A stretch of DNA of 64,000 bases from Escherichia phage OLB35. Location of the stretch: sequence record MH992122.1; one strand, 5' to 3'. Below are positions 2,402 through 59,651 of the stretch, piece after piece. Under the pieces are notes generated by a model that worked only from the letters and a program-made list of their open reading frames with translations, was not told where the DNA came from and did no database searches. The translations under genes and the position numbers were made by a program. Position 1 is the stretch's first letter, and each line of letters begins with the position of its first letter.

Positions 2402-4727
<2,326 letters not shown>

Positions 4728-4754
4728 AAATAAAGCAAATTAAGAGGAATTAAA

Positions 4755-6737
4755 ATGGCACTTCTCTCTCCGGGCGTTGAGCTCAAAGAAACTACCGTAC
4801 AGAGTACTGTAGTTAATAACTCCACTGGTACTGCTGCTCTGGCTGGAAAATTCCAATGGGGCCCTGCATTCCAGATTAAACAAATCACTGATGAAGTTGC
4901 ATTGGTTGATATGTTTGGTACTCCTAATACGGATACAGCAGATTATTTCATGTCTGCTATGAACTTCCTTCAATACGGTAATGACCTTCGTGTTGTACGC
5001 GCAGTTGATCGTGATACTGCTAAGAACTCATCTCCTGTAGCAGGCAATATCGAATTCACAATCTCAGCTGCAGGTAGTAACTATGCGGTTGGTGATAAAA
5101 TTATCGTTAAGTATTTGTCCGAAACTGTTGAAGCAGATGGTTATGTCACTTCAGTTGATGTCGATGGTAAAATCCTTAACATTTATATCCCAACCGGTAA
5201 AATTATTGCTCGTGCAAAAGAAATTAATGAATATCCGGCATTAGGTTCTAACTGGACCGCCGAAGTTGCCGGTTCTTCTTCTGGACTCTCTGGCGTTATT
5301 ACAATTGGTTCTATCGTAACCGATTCAGGTATTCTGTTGACTGAAGTTGAAACTTCAGAAGAAGCTATTACTTCTCTAACTTTCCAAGAATCTATTAAAA
5401 AATATGGTGTCCCAGGCGTAGTTGCTCTTTATCCTGGTGAACTTGGCGACCGGCTCGAAATTGAAATCGTATCTAAAGCAGACTATGACAAAGGTGCTTC
5501 AGCCCAGTTAAAAATTTATCCTGATGGTGGTACTCGCGCATCTACTGCTAAAGCAATCTTTGGGTATGGCCCACAAACTGATGACCAATATGCGATTATC
5601 GTTCGTCGTAACGATGCTGTAGTCCAGAGTGTAGTTCTTTCTACTAAACGCGGTGAACGCGATATTTATGGTAGTAATATCTTTATTGATGATTTCTTTG
5701 CTAAAGGCGCAAGCAATTATATTTTCGCTACTGCACAAGGTTGGCCAAAAGGTTTCTCTGGTGTAATCAAACTGAGTGGTGGCTTATCATCTAATGAAAC
5801 GGTTGACGCTGGTGATTTAATGGAAGCTTGGGATTTGTTTGCGGACCGCGAATCTGTTAATGCGCAGTTGTTTATTGCCGGTTCTTGTGCAGGTGAATCT
5901 TTAGAAGTTGCTTCTACAGTTCAGAAACATGTTGTAGCAATTGGTGATTCTCGACAAGATTGCTTGGTTCTTTGCTCACCACCACGTGCAACTATAGTCG
6001 GTATTCCTGTTAATCGTGCAGTTGATAATCTGGTTGATTGGCGTACTGCATCAGGATCTTACACTGATAATAACTTTAATGTAAGTTCTACTTATGCTGC
6101 TATTGACGGTAACTATAAATATCAATACGACAAATATAACGATGTGAATCGTTGGGTTCCGTTAGCTGCTGATATTGCCGGTCTTTGTGCTCGCACAGAC
6201 AATATTTCTCAGCCTTGGATGTCTCCGGCCGGTTATAACCGCGGACAAATTCTTAACGTTATTAAGCTTGCAATTGAAACTCGTCAACCACAACGTGATC
6301 GTTTGTATCAGGAAGCTATTAACCCTGTTACTGGTACCGGTGGTGACGGATATGTTCTGTACGGCGATAAAACTGCCACTTCCGTTCCTTCACCATTTGA
6401 CCGTATTAACGTTCGTCGTTTGTTCAATATGGTTAAAACGAACATTGGTTCAGCATCTAAATATCGCCTGTTTGAATTGAACAACGCATTTACCCGTTCT
6501 TCTTTCCGTACAGAGACTTCTCAATATCTACAGGGTATTAAAGCTCTCGGTGGTGTATATAACTTTAAAGTTGTTTGTGATACTACCAATAACACCCCAG
6601 CAGTTATCGACCGTAATGAATTTGTAGCTACTTTCTACTTACAACCTGCCCGCTCGATAAATTATATTACGTTGAACTTTGTAGCAACAGCAACTGGTGC
6701 CGATTTCGACGAACTGATTGGTGCTGTAGGTGGTTAA
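4755..6737 (+). CDS. 18: Tail sheath protein gp18
   Basis: 660 aa (T4 659); TATAAATA late promoter at 4720 upstream. Confidence 0.95.
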   Translation: MALLSPGVELKETTVQSTVVNNSTGTAALAGKFQWGPAFQIKQITDEVALVDMFGTPNTDTADYFMSAMNFLQYGNDLRVVRAVDRDTAKNSSPVAGNIEFTISAAGSNYAVGDKIIVKYLSETVEADGYVTSVDVDGKILNIYIPTGKIIARAKEINEYPALGSNWTAEVAGSSSGLSGVITIGSIVTDSGILLTEVETSEEAITSLTFQESIKKYGVPGVVALYPGELGDRLEIEIVSKADYDKGASAQLKIYPDGGTRASTAKAIFGYGPQTDDQYAIIVRRNDAVVQSVVLSTKRGERDIYGSNIFIDDFFAKGASNYIFATAQGWPKGFSGVIKLSGGLSSNETVDAGDLMEAWDLFADRESVNAQLFIAGSCAGESLEVASTVQKHVVAIGDSRQDCLVLCSPPRATIVGIPVNRAVDNLVDWRTASGSYTDNNFNVSSTYAAIDGNYKYQYDKYNDVNRWVPLAADIAGLCARTDNISQPWMSPAGYNRGQILNVIKLAIETRQPQRDRLYQEAINPVTGTGGDGYVLYGDKTATSVPSPFDRINVRRLFNMVKTNIGSASKYRLFELNNAFTRSSFRTETSQYLQGIKALGGVYNFKVVCDTTNNTPAVIDRNEFVATFYLQPARSINYITLNFVATATGADFDELIGAVGG

Positions 6738-11165: not shown

Positions 11166-12734
11166 ATGACTACTATCAAAACTAAAGCTCAGCTCGTAGA
11201 CAAATGGAAAGAACTGCTGGAAGGTGAAGGCCTGCCGGAAATCGCTAATAGCAAGCAGGCTATTATCGCTAAAATCTTCGAAAACCAGGAAAAAGATTTC
11301 GAAGTATCCCCTGAATATAAAGACGAGAAAATCGCTCAGGCATTTGGTTCTTTCTTGACCGAAGCTGAAATTGGTGGTGACCATGGTTATAATGCTCAGA
11401 ACATCGCAGCAGGTCAAACCTCTGGTGCAGTAACCCAAATTGGGCCGGCAGTTATGGGTATGGTTCGTCGTGCTATTCCTAATCTGATCGCTTTTGATAT
11501 TTGTGGTGTTCAGCCTATGAACAGCCCGACCGGTCAGGTATTTGCTCTCCGTGCAGTATATGGTAAAGACCCTATCGCTGCTGGCGCTAAAGAAGCTTTC
11601 CATCCGATGTATGCCCCAGACGCGATGTTCTCTGGTCAGGGTGCTGCTAAGAAATTCCCAGCTCTGGCTGCTGACACTACTACTGTTGTAGGTGATATCT
11701 ATACTCACTTCTTCCAAGAAACTGGTACTGTATATCTGCAAGCTTCTGCTGTCGTAACACTTGATTCTGGTGCAACTGATGCAGCTAAATTAGATGCAGA
11801 AGTTAAGAAACAAATGGAAGCTGGTGCACTGGTAGAAATCGCTGAAGGTATGGCTACTTCTATCGCTGAACTCCAGGAAGGTTTCAACGGTTCTACCGAT
11901 AACCCATGGAATGAAATGGGCTTCCGTATCGATAAACAAGTTATCGAAGCTAAATCTCGCCAGCTGAAAGCTGCTTACTCTATCGAATTAGCACAAGACC
12001 TCCGTGCAGTACACGGTATGGATGCTGATGCTGAACTGAGCGGTATTCTGGCTACAGAAATTATGCTAGAAATCAACCGTGAAGTTGTTGATTGGATTAA
12101 CTACTCAGCACAGGTCGGTAAATCTGGTATGACCCTGACTCCTGGTTCTAAAGCTGGTGTATTTGACTTCCAGGACCCGATTGATATCCGTGGTGCTCGT
12201 TGGGCCGGTGAAAGCTTTAAATCTCTGTTGTTCCAGATTGATAAAGAAGCAGTTGAAATTGCTCGTCAAACCGGTCGTGGTGAAGGTAACTTCATTATCG
12301 CTTCCCGTAACGTAGTTAACGTACTGGCTTCAGTTGATACTGGTATTTCTTACGCTGCACAGGGTCTGGCTTCTGGTTTTAATACCGACACTACTAAGTC
12401 TGTATTTGCCGGTGTACTTGGTGGTAAATACCGCGTATACATCGACCAGTATGCTAAACAGGATTACTTCACCGTTGGTTACAAAGGCGCTAACGAAATG
12501 GATGCAGGTATCTACTATGCTCCTTACGTTGCACTTACCCCACTGCGTGGTTCCGATCCTAAGAACTTCCAGCCGGTAATGGGCTTTAAAACTCGTTACG
12601 GTATCGGTGTTAACCCGTTTGCTGAAAGTTCCCTGCAGGCTCCAGGTGCTCGCATCCAGTCCGGTATGCCGTCTATCCTGAACAGCCTTGGTAAGAACGC
12701 TTACTTCCGCCGTGTATATGTAAAAGGCATCTAA
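11166..12734 (+). CDS. 23: Major capsid protein gp23
   Basis: 522 aa; N-terminus and long internal stretches match recalled T4 gp23 (LLEGEGLPEIANSKQAIIAKIFENQEKDF...). Confidence 0.97.
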   Translation: MTTIKTKAQLVDKWKELLEGEGLPEIANSKQAIIAKIFENQEKDFEVSPEYKDEKIAQAFGSFLTEAEIGGDHGYNAQNIAAGQTSGAVTQIGPAVMGMVRRAIPNLIAFDICGVQPMNSPTGQVFALRAVYGKDPIAAGAKEAFHPMYAPDAMFSGQGAAKKFPALAADTTTVVGDIYTHFFQETGTVYLQASAVVTLDSGATDAAKLDAEVKKQMEAGALVEIAEGMATSIAELQEGFNGSTDNPWNEMGFRIDKQVIEAKSRQLKAAYSIELAQDLRAVHGMDADAELSGILATEIMLEINREVVDWINYSAQVGKSGMTLTPGSKAGVFDFQDPIDIRGARWAGESFKSLLFQIDKEAVEIARQTGRGEGNFIIASRNVVNVLASVDTGISYAAQGLASGFNTDTTKSVFAGVLGGKYRVYIDQYAKQDYFTVGYKGANEMDAGIYYAPYVALTPLRGSDPKNFQPVMGFKTRYGIGVNPFAESSLQAPGARIQSGMPSILNSLGKNAYFRRVYVKGI

Positions 12735-12758
12735 TCTTAATTGATTAAATCTTATTTT

Positions 12759-12776
12759 GGGAGACTTCGGTCTCCC
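12759..12776 (+). terminator. Intrinsic terminator GGGAGAC-UUCG-GUCUCCC plus U-tract after gene 23
   Basis: Perfect 7-bp stem with UUCG tetraloop followed by AUUUUUGGUUUU. Confidence 0.8.
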
Positions 12777-12786
12777 ATTTTTGGTT

Positions 12787-13056
12787 TTATTTCTGTGCAA
12801 TTTCGATGTAAGTTTTCAAAATATTTTGCCAATTAGGCATACCTTCTTGGACATATGCTGGAGAACCGTCTTTGTTTTTGAATGATGCAAGTTTATCAGT
12901 GGCCCAATAGCCTTTAGCTCGAGCTTCAGAATCAACTTTCATCCATACTTTGTTGAAGGCATTACCATTAACTTTTGCACCATATTTTTCTACTAACTTA
13001 ACTGCTTCAGCTTCCAGAACTTTTAAAGTATCTCGTAAGAAACGTGCTTTAGTCAT
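12787..13056 (-). CDS. Hypothetical 89-aa protein on the opposite strand between genes 23 and 24
   Basis: ORF with a GAGGA Shine-Dalgarno about 9 nt upstream and its own early-type promoter (13087-13116); no recognisable motif. Confidence 0.55.
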   Translation of the reverse strand: MTKARFLRDTLKVLEAEAVKLVEKYGAKVNGNAFNKVWMKVDSEARAKGYWATDKLASFKNKDGSPAYVQEGMPNWQNILKTYIEIAQK

Positions 13057-13086
13057 TTTGTTTACTCCTCTGTAGTTGATAAGTCT

Positions 13087-13116
13087 ATAGTATCACATAC
13101 CAAATACGTTGTAAAC
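13087..13116 (-). promoter_or_regulatory. Early-type promoter (GTTTAC -35, 18-nt spacer, TACTAT -10) for the 89-aa minus-strand ORF
   Basis: Minus strand reads GTTTACAACGTATTTGGTATGTGATACTAT; same cassette as the other early promoters in the window. Confidence 0.6.
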
Positions 13117-13122
13117 AATCTT

Positions 13123-13130
13123 TATAAATA
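13123..13130 (+). promoter_or_regulatory. Late promoter TATAAATA (gene 24)
   Basis: Exact TATAAATA about 27 nt upstream of the gp24 ATG. Confidence 0.7.
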
Positions 13131-13156
13131 ATCTATATCACATAAGGAAAAATGCA

Positions 13157-14440
13157 ATGAGTAAAATCCAAAAATTATTGCGTGAATCTACAACGTCTAC
13201 TAGCAACTCAATTGGTCGCCCAAATCTCGTTGCTTTGACTCGCGCTACGACTAAATTAATATATTCTGACATTGTAGCAACACAAAGAACTAATCAACCT
13301 GTTGCTGCTTTTTATGGTATTAAATATCTTAACCCAGACAACGAATTAACGTTTAAAACTGGTGCTACTTATGCAGGTGAAGCTGGATATGTAGACCGAG
13401 AAAAAATTACCGAGCTCACAGAAGAATCAAAAGCCACACTAAATAAAGGTGATTTTTTCAAATATAATAATATCGTTTATAAAGTGTTAGAAGATACACC
13501 ATTTGCAGATATTCAGGAAAGTGATCTAGAATTAGCTCTTCAGATTGCGGTCGTTCATTTAAAGGTACGGCTATTTTCAGATGCAGCGGTAACAAGCAAA
13601 TTTGAAAGCTCTGGTAGCGAAATTTCTGATGCAAGATTCCAGATTAATAAATGGCAAACTTCAGTCAAATCTCGTAAACTTAAAACTGGCCTCACGGTTG
13701 AATTAGCGCAAGATTTAGAAGCGAATGGATTTGATGCCCCTAACTTCTTAGAAGATTTGCTTGCTACTGAAATGGCTGATGAAATTAATAAAGATATTCT
13801 TCAGTCTTTAATTACTGTATCGAAACGTTATAAAGTTACTGGAATTACTGACACCGGATTTATTGACTTGAGCTATGCTTCCGCTCCAGAAGCAGGTCGT
13901 TCGTTATATCGAATGGTGTGTGAAATGGTATCACACATTCAAAAAGAGTCAACTTATACTGCAACGTTTTGCGTAGCTTCAGCTCGTGCAGCTGCTATTC
14001 TTGCTGCTTCAGGTTGGTTAAAACATAAACCAGAAGATGATAAGTATCTTTCACAAAATGCTTATGGATTCTTGGCAAATGGATTACCTCTTTACTGCGA
14101 TACTAACAGTCCATTAGATTATGTGATCGTTGGCGTAGTAGAAAATATCGGCGAAAAAGAGATTGTAGGGTCCATCTTTTATGCTCCATACACTGAAGGA
14201 ATGGATTTAGACGACCCGGAACATGTCGGTGCATTTAAAGTTGTAGTTGATCCGGAAAGCTTACAACCGTCTATAGGTTTATTGGTTAGATATGCTTTAT
14301 CAGCAAATCCTTACACAGTAGCAAAAGATGAAAAAGAAGCGAGAGTAATTGATGGCGGGGACATGGATAAAATGGCAGGACGTTCAGACTTGTCTGTTTT
14401 ACTCGGTGTTAAATTGCCTAAAATTATTATAGATGAATAA
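13157..14440 (+). CDS. 24: Capsid vertex protein gp24
   Basis: 427 aa as in T4; late promoter TATAAATA at 13123. Confidence 0.95.
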   Translation: MSKIQKLLRESTTSTSNSIGRPNLVALTRATTKLIYSDIVATQRTNQPVAAFYGIKYLNPDNELTFKTGATYAGEAGYVDREKITELTEESKATLNKGDFFKYNNIVYKVLEDTPFADIQESDLELALQIAVVHLKVRLFSDAAVTSKFESSGSEISDARFQINKWQTSVKSRKLKTGLTVELAQDLEANGFDAPNFLEDLLATEMADEINKDILQSLITVSKRYKVTGITDTGFIDLSYASAPEAGRSLYRMVCEMVSHIQKESTYTATFCVASARAAAILAASGWLKHKPEDDKYLSQNAYGFLANGLPLYCDTNSPLDYVIVGVVENIGEKEIVGSIFYAPYTEGMDLDDPEHVGAFKVVVDPESLQPSIGLLVRYALSANPYTVAKDEKEARVIDGGDMDKMAGRSDLSVLLGVKLPKIIIDE

Positions 14441-14471: not shown

Positions 14472-15479
14472 TTATGATACTAATTCAATCCATGCAGGAC
14501 GCAGAACATCTTGCACCATTCGGACTAATTCTTTCTTAACAAGATTCGGATTATCAGATGATGTTAATACAATACCTTCACGAGAAGTTTCTTCCAGAAT
14601 ATCTTGAACAGTCAATCCCATCACTTTGCCAAAATCTTTTGGCGTTACAGCCCCAATCTTAGAAATCACATTGTTAACACGATTTAATGTAACATAACAA
14701 GCTAGAACATCAAGCAAGTTTTTGTCAATTTCGGTTAATGGAACCTGAGTTTTAATAGGCTTATCAGACTTTTTCTTTTCACTGAATTTAGAGTTCTTGC
14801 ACTTAATAGCTACACGAGTACCGTTTGGCAGCCATTTAGGGAAACAAGGCTTCAGAACATAACCTTCTGCAGTATTATCACCAATAACATTAGCATCAAA
14901 TACACAATTATTTGCTTCGACAAGGTCTTCCGATGCCGTAGTGTTATAAGCGGCTAAGACGGAATCAAGGTCATTTGGAATCATGATAAGAGAATCAAAT
15001 GTTCCACGACCAAGCATTGGTGCCATTTTAAAACCGAATTCATTACAGAAATCTTGCATTTCGTAATCACTCATGTAATAAGTATCACCGCTTTCCGTGT
15101 TTATGATGATATCGAATACATAGAAATCTTTTTCACCGTAGTCAACACCTTTCTGAATTCCACCACCAGCGAATTCACCAAAGATTTGATATGTCACTGG
15201 CACTGAAGTTGAAATACTGCCCATGACTTCTTGAACACCTTTAATAGCCTTATCATACTTCTTGAGTACGATTTCATAACCATAAAAATCTTCTGCTGGA
15301 AGAATAGGGCCTGTGCGCTTGGCGCATGTGACGTTGTCACGTTCAATTATTAACGAGAAGTTAGTCCCATGGATTTTCTCACGTGCTACCCAAACACCAG
15401 TAGTCAAACCATTAGTGTAGAGTTTTTCAATAAACTTAGAGTTGTAGTGGTTTTCAAGACTGCTGTATTTCTTAAACAT
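14472..15479 (-). CDS. rnlB: RNA ligase 2 (Rnl2)
   Basis: 335 aa; N-terminus [21 protein letters not shown] and the nucleotidyltransferase lysine motif KIHGTN match T4 Rnl2. Confidence 0.95.
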
Positions 15480-15850: not shown

Positions 15851-16047
15851 TTCTTCACCTTTTTGTTAATCAAACGTTTACGGTATACAACTTTTTCTTT
15901 TGCTTTAAACTTTGACCGAGCTGTCTCGGCTTTAGTCCATAGTAATCCAACTTCTTTAGGTTGTAAACCAATTTTTTGAGAAATTTCTACGAATGAAAAT
16001 CCCGCCTCATGTAATGTATAAACTTCAACTTCAGCTCTCATAATCAA
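15847..16047 (-). CDS. Hypothetical small protein with helix-turn-helix-like segment
   Basis: 66 aa; segment LHEAGFSFVEISQKIGLQPKEV resembles an HTH; basic C-terminus. Confidence 0.5.
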   Translation of the reverse strand: MIMRAEVEVYTLHEAGFSFVEISQKIGLQPKEVGLLWTKAETARSKFKAKEKVVYRKRLINKKVKK

Positions 16048-28435: not shown

Positions 28436-28465
28436 ATAGTATCACACATCCATGTGCTTGTAAAC
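28436..28465 (-). promoter_or_regulatory. Early-type promoter (GTTTAC / TACTAT) at the alt 3-prime end
   Basis: Minus strand GTTTAC, 18-nt spacer, TACTAT, then leader CAACAACATGAGGAAAACGTT-ATG. Confidence 0.55.
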
Positions 28466-34787: not shown

Positions 34788-34816
34788 ATAATAACATAAC
34801 CTGTACCAAAGTAAAC
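34788..34816 (-). promoter_or_regulatory. Early-type promoter (GTTTAC / TATTAT)
   Basis: GTTTAC, 17-nt spacer, TATTAT upstream of the ORF starting at 34746. Confidence 0.55.
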
Positions 34817-35231: not shown

Positions 35232-35260
35232 ATAGTAACACATCCTACAGGAGAGTAAAC
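35232..35260 (-). promoter_or_regulatory. Early-type promoter (GTTTAC / TACTAT)
   Basis: GTTTAC, 17-nt spacer, TACTAT upstream of the ORF starting at 35189. Confidence 0.55.
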
Positions 35261-35296: not shown

Positions 35297-35314
35297 GGGA
35301 GACCGAAGTCTCCC
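35297..35314 (-). terminator. Terminator GGGAGAC-UUCG-GUCUCCC after the small basic ORF
   Basis: Minus-strand hairpin followed by UUUUGUGCGUUU. Confidence 0.7.
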
Positions 35315-38772: not shown

Positions 38773-38802
38773 TGGTAGAGTCATCATATCACAACTCTAC
38801 GG
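38773..38802 (-). promoter_or_regulatory. Early-type promoter (GTTTAC / TATGAT)
   Basis: GTTTAC, 18-nt spacer, TATGAT upstream of the ORF starting at 38755. Confidence 0.5.
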
Positions 38803-38812
38803 TGTTGTAAAC

Positions 38813-42312: not shown

Positions 42313-42342
42313 ATAGTAACACCATCCTTGGTGTTTGTAAAC
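42313..42342 (-). promoter_or_regulatory. Early-type promoter (GTTTAC / TACTAT) for alc
   Basis: Lies across the rnlA stop, upstream of the alc start at 42282. Confidence 0.55.
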
Positions 42343-43495: not shown

Positions 43496-43525
43496 ATTGT
43501 ACCACAATCCTTGTGGTATGTAAAC
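43496..43525 (-). promoter_or_regulatory. Early-type promoter (GTTTAC / TACAAT) for rnlA
   Basis: GTTTAC overlaps the denA stop codon; 18-nt spacer; TACAAT. Confidence 0.55.
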
Positions 43526-50608: not shown

Positions 50609-50637
50609 ATACTAACACATCCAGGGAAGAAGTAAAC
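50609..50637 (-). promoter_or_regulatory. Early-type promoter (GTTTAC / TAGTAT) for the frd.3-like unit
   Basis: GTTTAC, 17-nt spacer, TAGTAT, followed by leader with GAGGA SD. Confidence 0.55.
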
Positions 50638-50668: not shown

Positions 50669-50686
50669 GGGAGACCGAAGTCTCCC
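50669..50686 (-). terminator. Terminator GGGAGAC-UUCG-GUCUCCC after gene 32
   Basis: Minus-strand hairpin followed by UUUUGAGUAU. Confidence 0.7.
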
Positions 50687-50692
50687 AATTTA

Positions 50693-59635: not shown

Positions 59636-59651
59636 GGAGACTTCGGTCTCC
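59636..59651 (+). terminator. Terminator hairpin GGAGAC-UUCG-GUCUCC plus U-tract after gp35
   Basis: Followed by UUUUCGCG, then the gene 36 late promoter. Confidence 0.7.

Follow-up and report, generated by a model that had tools for sequence, protein, structure and literature searches.

A close described counterpart of the locus analyzed here is the segD locus of phage T4, in which a homing endonuclease gene lies on the opposite strand between the major capsid gene 23 and the vertex gene 24, as the earlier note on this DNA states and as the T4 sequence bears out. In the supplement to a time-resolved omics study of T4, segD is classed as an early RNA and a middle protein, and the SegD protein was detected (PMC9697503); a segD-specific promoter is described as not identifiable in the review by Edgell et al., 2010 (PMC2988022). 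At the level of genome organization, the locus can also be compared with moron-like cassettes and with the plastic regions of T4-like phages, where a promoter-plus-gene unit of variable presence lies between core genes and is exchanged horizontally. At the level of the gene product, the relevant points of comparison are T4 Alc and Gp94/Emp of Mosigvirus AV110 (which binds MreB/C/D), as well as the DNA-mimic anti-restriction proteins Ocr and Arn.

Here, we analyze the junction between genes 23 and 24 in a stretch of 64,000 nucleotides from Escherichia phage OLB35 (MH992122.1; hereafter the window), where an 89-aa ORF on the minus strand is inserted between the two head genes just as the earlier note had described it (Table 1). 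Over the 501 bases around the ORF, the locus is closest to Mosigvirus, the RB69-like T-even coliphages, with CCU7, FP43, PhAPEC2, and APCEc01 at 99-99.8% identity. The ORF is 100% identical to proteins called “hypothetical” in many Mosigvirus records, a label that its family carries across >200 phage genomes, and its counterpart in the PhAPEC2 record is annotated as similar to RB69ORF188c. The PHROG 6003 profile, annotated as unknown function, matches the ORF over its full length (residues 1-89 against profile positions 1-90 of 90, E 2.1e-45), and the window ORF and RB69ORF188c / PHROG 6003 belong to the same family, with no difference found between them. A literature search on “RB69ORF188c” returned no papers, and in the transcriptome literature on Mosigvirus and RB69 we found no dataset covering the ORF. 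Taken alone, the ORF would be one more uncharacterized small early T-even gene, “hypothetical” in hundreds of genomes.

Table 1. Features of the junction between genes 23 and 24 and related elements. Positions are those of the window unless another record is named.
Feature	Position	Strand	Basis
Gene 23, major capsid	11166-12734	+	ORF list
Gene 23 intrinsic terminator hairpin, GGGAGAC-TTCG-GTCTCCC and T tract	12758-12777	+	Terminator scan
89-aa ORF, ATG start, RB69ORF188c / PHROG 6003 family, allele type A	12787-13056	-	ORF list, PHROG match
Swappable cassette segment, replaced in LF82-3	12790-13065		blastn breakpoints, junction sequences
Shine-Dalgarno GAGGAG, 8 nt before the ATG	13065-13070	-	Read from sequence
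Candidate early promoter, extended -10 element TGATACTAT	13087-13095	-	Consensus scan
Candidate early promoter, -35 element GTTTACA	13110-13116	-	Consensus scan, alignment
Gene 24 late promoter TATAAATA	13123-13130	+	Read from sequence
Gene 24, vertex	13157-14440	+	ORF list
rnlB	14472-15479	-	Local gene order
Seven further early-promoter motifs of the ORF class	28436-28465, 34788-34816, 35232-35260, 38783-38812, 42313-42342, 43496-43525, 50609-50637	-	Motif scan
T4 segD candidate promoter, TTTACA / TGATATTAT	3254-3282 of NC_000866 104000-108700	-	Consensus scan; aligns with the window ORF promoter

With the 89-aa ORF as a tblastn query, we recovered 239 phage records, ~120 of them at an identity of at least 80% and 119 at <60%. 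In Gaprivervirus VR20 and in the Dhakavirus phages WG01 and 04086, the ORF is found as a distant copy with an unchanged position and orientation between gp23 and gp24, and this holds for every placeable metagenomic member as well; the syntenic homologues from Mosigvirus, Gaprivervirus, Dhakavirus, and metagenomic lineages span 30-100% identity to the window ORF. A search of IMG/VR for the locus returned 9 Dhakavirus and Gaprivervirus isolates only, all of which were already among the carriers found. Inside allele classes, pairwise Nei-Gojobori estimates of dN/dS fall at 0.04-0.16, and the WG01/04086 pair, which is unsaturated, gives a dS of 0.32 and a dN of 0.043 by the same method. Given the synteny in relatives, the low dN/dS, and a confident AlphaFold2 fold, the 89-aa ORF is a genuine, conserved gene under purifying selection, which disposes of the concern that it might not be conserved in any relative.

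Natural disrupted copies occur as well. The ORF is frameshifted into two pieces in phage mogra (MN850579, 65653-65918) and truncated in 310Ecol104PP, and the metagenomic copies P0007, P0008, P0018, and P0019 are fragments of 51-64 aa, such that the split mogra copy and the fragments constitute ready-made null alleles. Because the ORF is split or truncated in some phages, and because many relatives have nothing in the slot between genes 23 and 24 (see below), the gene appears to be dispensable.

The gene is preceded by a putative promoter of its own. Our consensus scan returned TTTACA, 17 nt, and TACTAT with an upstream TG on the minus strand at 13115..13087, which is the same element that had been read from the letters as GTTTAC, 18 nt, and TACTAT at 13116..13087, and which can equally be laid out as GTTTACA, 14 nt, and then TGATACTAT. 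With its GTTTAC(A), its spacer of ~17 nt, its extended TGnTAnnAT, and its placement on the early-gene strand, this candidate has the features of a T4-type early (sigma-70) promoter, an assignment that we base on motif and homology, and transcription of the ORF is predicted to start near 13080 on the minus strand. The GAGGA Shine-Dalgarno proposed in the earlier note is present as GAGGAG at 13070..13065, and homologous leaders carry a purine-rich ribosome-binding site at the equivalent position. The motif GTTTAC-N14-15-TGnTAnnAT has 8 sites in the window, where shuffled sequence would yield 0.04, and 8/8 of them are on the minus strand; the suggestion that the same early promoter cassette is reused elsewhere in the window therefore holds, far beyond chance. 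When the window is related to the PhAPEC2 annotation by an approximate shift of coordinates, the remaining seven sites fall in the alt-30.x-cd-pseT-frd early-gene region. We note also a weaker variant of the motif without the TG at 15939-15968, which lies inside a 24.3-like ORF and upstream of a 24.2-like ORF.

The promoter can be followed across lineages. Among the 10 that were aligned, the -10 element is kept in 9, that upstream of T4 segD among them, with VR20 departing through a degenerate -10, and the -35 element is an exact GTTTACA in 8, the exceptions being a metagenomic lineage (L019) with GTGTACA and T4 with ATTTACA. The leaders of the occupied slots that were aligned have the same order throughout, T4 segD included, and read late promoter, GTTTACA, a TGnTAYTAT-like -10, ribosome-binding site, and AAAATG. 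The late promoter of gene 24, whose motif is kept in all aligned lineages, stands back to back with the early promoter of the ORF, 6 nt from its -35 element.

In T4, the scan upstream of segD gives TTTACA, 17 nt, and TGaTATTAT, with 10/12 consensus matches plus the TG, which points to a conserved early-type promoter for T4 segD. Taking the promoter motif of the ORF together with the early RNA kinetics of T4 segD behind a homologous promoter, we infer that the 89-aa ORF is likewise expressed early. The two loci are alike in their slot, in their strand, and in an apparently homologous early-type promoter and leader, which in both cases adjoins the gene 24 late promoter back to back, but they are unlike in their cargo, which is unrelated. 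The 89-aa ORF lacks the GIY-YIG motif (Pfam GIY-YIG gives no match), and in blastp against T4 SegD and the endonuclease of Escherichia phage 04086, its best match covers 17 residues at E 0.043.

At its 3' end, the ORF faces the terminator of gene 23. The earlier note had placed the gene next to a bidirectional region holding this terminator and the gene 24 late promoter; both elements are indeed present, but termination in both directions is not borne out. The hairpin scores on the plus strand only, the terminator scan predicts no minus-strand terminator at the locus, and on the minus strand, where the same hairpin would form the 3' hairpin of the ORF transcript (-13.5 kcal/mol), it is followed by AAAAUAAG and no U tract. 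The hairpin is present in all listed lineages except one, the stretch listed for 04086 running into the endonuclease gene, and is kept also where the slot is empty. Besides the copy at 12758-12777 (+), near-exact repeats of the hairpin sequence GGGAGACTTCGGTCTCCC occur in the window at 35297-35314 (-), 50669-50688 (-), and 59636-59651 (+), and each of the minus-strand copies has an early-promoter motif ~30-40 nt downstream of it (35260 and 50637, respectively). This suggests that hairpin and early promoter together form a reused terminator-promoter module.

There is an alternative in which the RNA is the relevant product, with early antisense transcription passing through the weak hairpin into gene 23 to damp premature capsid expression and with the ORF being incidental. 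The lack of a predicted minus-strand terminator, the AAAAUAAG in place of a U tract, and an orientation of the cassette that always points into gene 23 are all compatible with this alternative, which we nevertheless regard as very improbable: the amino-acid sequence is under strong purifying selection, the product has a confident, compact predicted fold and a good ribosome-binding site, family members in other phages lack a downstream capsid gene, and phages with empty slots manage without the cassette despite gp23 and gp24 that are 95% identical. The region is also without an Rfam match, with nothing near the gathering score over 12500-13400.

A survey of the 23-24 junction across T-even genomes, as proposed in the earlier note, revealed six states of the slot. 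It is empty, with ~83-100 bp that hold the terminator hairpin and the late promoter only, in RB51 and teqskov (Tequatrovirus), Karamvirus, Kagamiyamavirus, Jiaodavirus, and Acinetobacter phage ZZ1; it holds segD alone in T4 and T6, and a different large endonuclease in phiR1-RT. A type A ORF occupies it in the window, in most Mosigvirus, and in three metagenomic lineages, and a type B ORF in Dhakavirus, Gaprivervirus, and two metagenomic lineages. In the sixth state, the gene for a GIY-YIG endonuclease of 219-223 aa begins 3 nt past the type B ORF; this combination is found in 38 records, and 47 records match over the type B ORF only. The slot of Yersinia phage phiR1-RT (1-1418, minus strand) contains a ~500-aa gene annotated as a homing endonuclease with an apparent promoter of its own (TACTAT -10), and this endonuclease is a third independent type of occupant of the junction.

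The GTTTAC promoter is absent from the empty slots, such that relatives without an insert also lack the promoter, in line with the view that the gene is an insertion at a variable junction. Since the promoter is found only with cargo, and since the occupied slots share their architecture, the early promoter belongs to the cassette and not to the core genome, and the junction between genes 23 and 24 is a swappable cassette slot bounded by highly conserved genes. In common with moron-like cassettes, the unit has a putative promoter of its own, and close relatives may have it or lack it while their flanks are intact. It differs from them in that it has no terminator on its own strand, the only one being the plus-strand terminator of gene 23, and in that one promoter is common to alternative cargoes.

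The type of ORF allele does not track the distances between the flanking genes. The gp23 and gp24 of T4 are ~95% identical to those of the window, and the Dhakavirus and Gaprivervirus proteins are more distant (gp23 ~84%, gp24 67-71% identity to the window); lineages at ~70% gp24 identity carry either type A, at 61-71% to the window ORF, or type B, at 30-38%. The clearest case is Mosigvirus LF82-3, which is nearly the same phage as the window at this position (gp23 100%, gp24 99.5%, and flanking DNA 97.6-98% identical). Yet its ORF is of type B, with a nucleotide identity of 93.6% to that of Dhakavirus 04086, and is accompanied by a segD-like GIY-YIG endonuclease. Homology between LF82-3 and the window is lost within the ribosome-binding site (window position 13065), 9 nt before the start codon, and returns at 12790 by blastn, with the spacer just past the shared hairpin divergent again. 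LF82-3 represents a horizontal replacement of the cargo between genera. The endonuclease of 04086 is 57% identical to T4 SegD, and endonuclease-assisted co-conversion is a plausible driver of the exchange; a spread driven by the endonuclease is suggested by the linkage, and it counts against such a spread that most ORF copies have no adjoining endonuclease. We suggest a common landing pad at the 23-24 junction, used jointly by a homing endonuclease and a small passenger gene that move as a pair.

This linkage also permits a different reading of the ORF itself, namely that it is a functional part of a homing-endonuclease unit, whether as the locus of cleavage or immunity or through a product that aids or regulates homing, and is not directed at the host. 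In 38 records, the segD-like GIY-YIG gene begins 3 nt past the type B ORF, the replacement in LF82-3 starts 9 nt upstream of the start codon and spans the whole ORF, and T4 segD has a homologous promoter and leader in the same slot. We consider a role in homing unlikely, however, as ~120 type A and ~47 type B copies have no adjacent endonuclease, and purifying selection on the ORF continues in endonuclease-free lineages. Moreover, the ORF has no significant similarity to SegD, and around the rV5-like homologues no endonuclease family appears among the precomputed Pfam hits, most neighbors there being hitless.

These homologues lie outside the T4-like phages, and comprise 30-39%-identical members in Acinetobacter phage ABPH49 (Vequintavirinae, rV5-like) and on metagenomic contigs of 35.5, 62.6, and ~141 kb. 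Their surroundings are long arrays of small ORFs that run in one direction and of which almost none has a Pfam match, and such arrays are typical of early accessory regions. The occurrence of homologues in small-gene arrays of rV5-like phages argues against a function that is tied to gp23 or gp24. The position of the gene could otherwise be explained if the protein were an accessory factor of head morphogenesis that acts on gp23 or gp24, and the synteny with genes 23 and 24 is indeed strict in all T4-like carriers. We find such a factor hard to credit, given that the promoter is of the early and not the late class and lies on the opposite strand, that the ORF is absent from T4, T6, and RB51 even though their gp23 and gp24 are ~95% identical to those of the window, that a 31%-identical allele is interchangeable with it on a backbone with identical gp23, and that the rV5-like homologues are found outside capsid modules. 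The homing-unit, antisense, and head-assembly explanations are all weakened by the distribution of the gene, the pattern of selection on it, and its homologues in unrelated phages.

The structure prediction proposed in the earlier note yields a confident model but no informative fold match. The AlphaFold2 model of the 89-aa protein (pLDDT 93, pTM 0.79, from a 15-sequence alignment) has an alpha-alpha-beta-beta-alpha topology, with predicted helices at residues 3-25 and 31-48, strands at 52-60 and 66-70, and a final helix at 76-88. Foldseek against BFVD returned a single match, a 31%-identical type B-like member of the same family with the same fold (TM 0.85). Among 13 diverse members, M1, K3, F6, G31, N32, N35, and Q70 are the only invariant residues; none of them is Asp, Glu, His, Cys, or Ser, with S57 nearly invariant. 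The protein has a pI of ~9.6, and the family as a whole is hydrophilic and basic (pI 8.0-9.9, net charge +1 to +8). The impression that the protein has no recognizable catalytic motif is thus shared by the Pfam, invariant-residue, and composition checks. On the strength of these residues and of the basic pI, an enzyme seems unlikely, and a binding protein would be the parsimonious reading.

No relatives outside a small phage family were found by sequence or fold, using a PDB sequence search, a profile search, Foldseek, and PADLOC, and the family appears to be small, phage-restricted, and without known relatives. Neither type A nor type B nor the ABPH49 member matches a PADLOC model (E <= 1), although these models describe bacterial defence proteins and are uninformative on counter-defence. 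The profile search, run against 1.84 billion cluster representatives, returned 10 hits. Several candidate relatives were rejected upon inspection: matches to two large proteins, the Big_2- and LRR-rich P0022 and the filamin-like P0024, are spurious, as they amount to summed matches of <=12 bits in Ig-like repeats, and P0020 (160 aa, from a contig of 701 bp) resembles the family in no more than 33 residues close to its C-terminus and is probably an assembly chimera. The name “NADPH-dependent curcumin reductase CurA” on the 90-aa member P0006 (from lineage L019; JGI source) is an evident mis-annotation. Pfam DUF4859 scores 17.9 bits (E 0.0029) against a gathering threshold of 22.6 bits, with 3/15 family members matching at all, and the best PDB sequence match, the RFC1 BRCT domain at E 0.076, is attributable to chance.

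Taking these observations into account, we can outline how the cassette may work. An early-promoter unit would be placed between the terminator hairpin of gene 23 and the late promoter of gene 24, where host sigma-70 RNA polymerase would initiate at GTTTACA / TGATACTAT in the first minutes of infection. Transcription of the ORF would oppose the late head operon, and the 89-aa protein would be made from a good ribosome-binding site. It would be a soluble, basic domain of ~10 kDa with an alpha-alpha-beta-beta-alpha topology, in which catalytic or metal-binding residues are not conserved. Such a protein would most likely act stoichiometrically, by binding a host macromolecule, be it a protein with an acidic surface or a nucleic acid; candidate targets are a defence system, a housekeeping protein, or nucleic acid. 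Host binding would make the product one of the small “host-modulating” proteins that large lytic phages produce early. The slot itself would serve as a recombination site in which one promoter drives type A, type B, type B with a segD-like endonuclease, or segD alone, and whole cargoes would be exchanged between genera, probably via endonuclease co-conversion or else by plain homologous recombination in the flanks.

Both the non-enzymatic mode of binding and the role in host modulation are inferred. Overall, we lean toward the picture of an early protein that is dispensable and modulates a host component by binding and not by catalysis, which we hold to be somewhat better than an even proposition; any specific target is much less likely. 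The 89-aa protein resembles T4 Alc and AV110 Emp in its size, predicted early-strand expression, orphan fold, and apparent dispensability, with Emp likewise having no fold relative of known function. It differs from them in that there is no sequence relationship, and in that it stands alone inside the late head operon and not in an early cluster. With Ocr and Arn it would share the character of a small early phage protein acting by binding. These DNA mimics are strongly acidic, whereas the ORF family is basic, and Foldseek against Ocr gives no meaningful match (E 4.3, TM 0.29). The toxicity screen of early proteins of Mosigvirus AV110 took T4 homologues only, and the 89-aa ORF was left out of it.

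The proposal in the earlier note that small early genes at variable junctions may be host-takeover or anti-defence factors remains speculation for this gene. We note, in particular, that a rapid arms race would not be expected to leave the very low dN/dS seen inside allele classes, and this counts against a host-arms-race reading. In a more specific version, types A and B, which are 30-38% identical to each other, would be specificity variants of an early counter-defence protein or host-factor inhibitor, with the type B-linked endonuclease driving replacement in mixed infections and with T4 segD as a remnant that is minus its passenger. We give this version little credence, but if it were true, a selfish endonuclease would be spreading an adaptive host-range allele. 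Irrespective of which function applies, the gene offers a clean test case, being a single gene with its own putative promoter that is isolated in the head operon. The test material comprises natural null alleles, relatives with empty slots, and two divergent alleles on near-isogenic backbones. Type A is carried by AV110, AV111, and AV117, and type B with the endonuclease by AV114 and AV116 as well as by LF82-3, and this natural allele series therefore makes the contribution of the gene to host range and defence evasion directly measurable.

Finally, two sets of observations concern the genes next to the ORF homologues. In Escherichia phage 04086 (OR842557), the segD-like GIY-YIG gene at 2771-3442 is unannotated, and gp23 (3502-5061) is called short, with a spurious opposite-strand “hypothetical protein” placed over its 5' part. 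Two tandem gp24 paralogues, ~67-71% and 52-55% identical to the gp24 of the window, lie downstream of the ORF homologue in Gaprivervirus, some Dhakavirus, and two metagenomic lineages (L002, L003, L016, and L019), and a single gp24 is found in the window, T4, and 04086.
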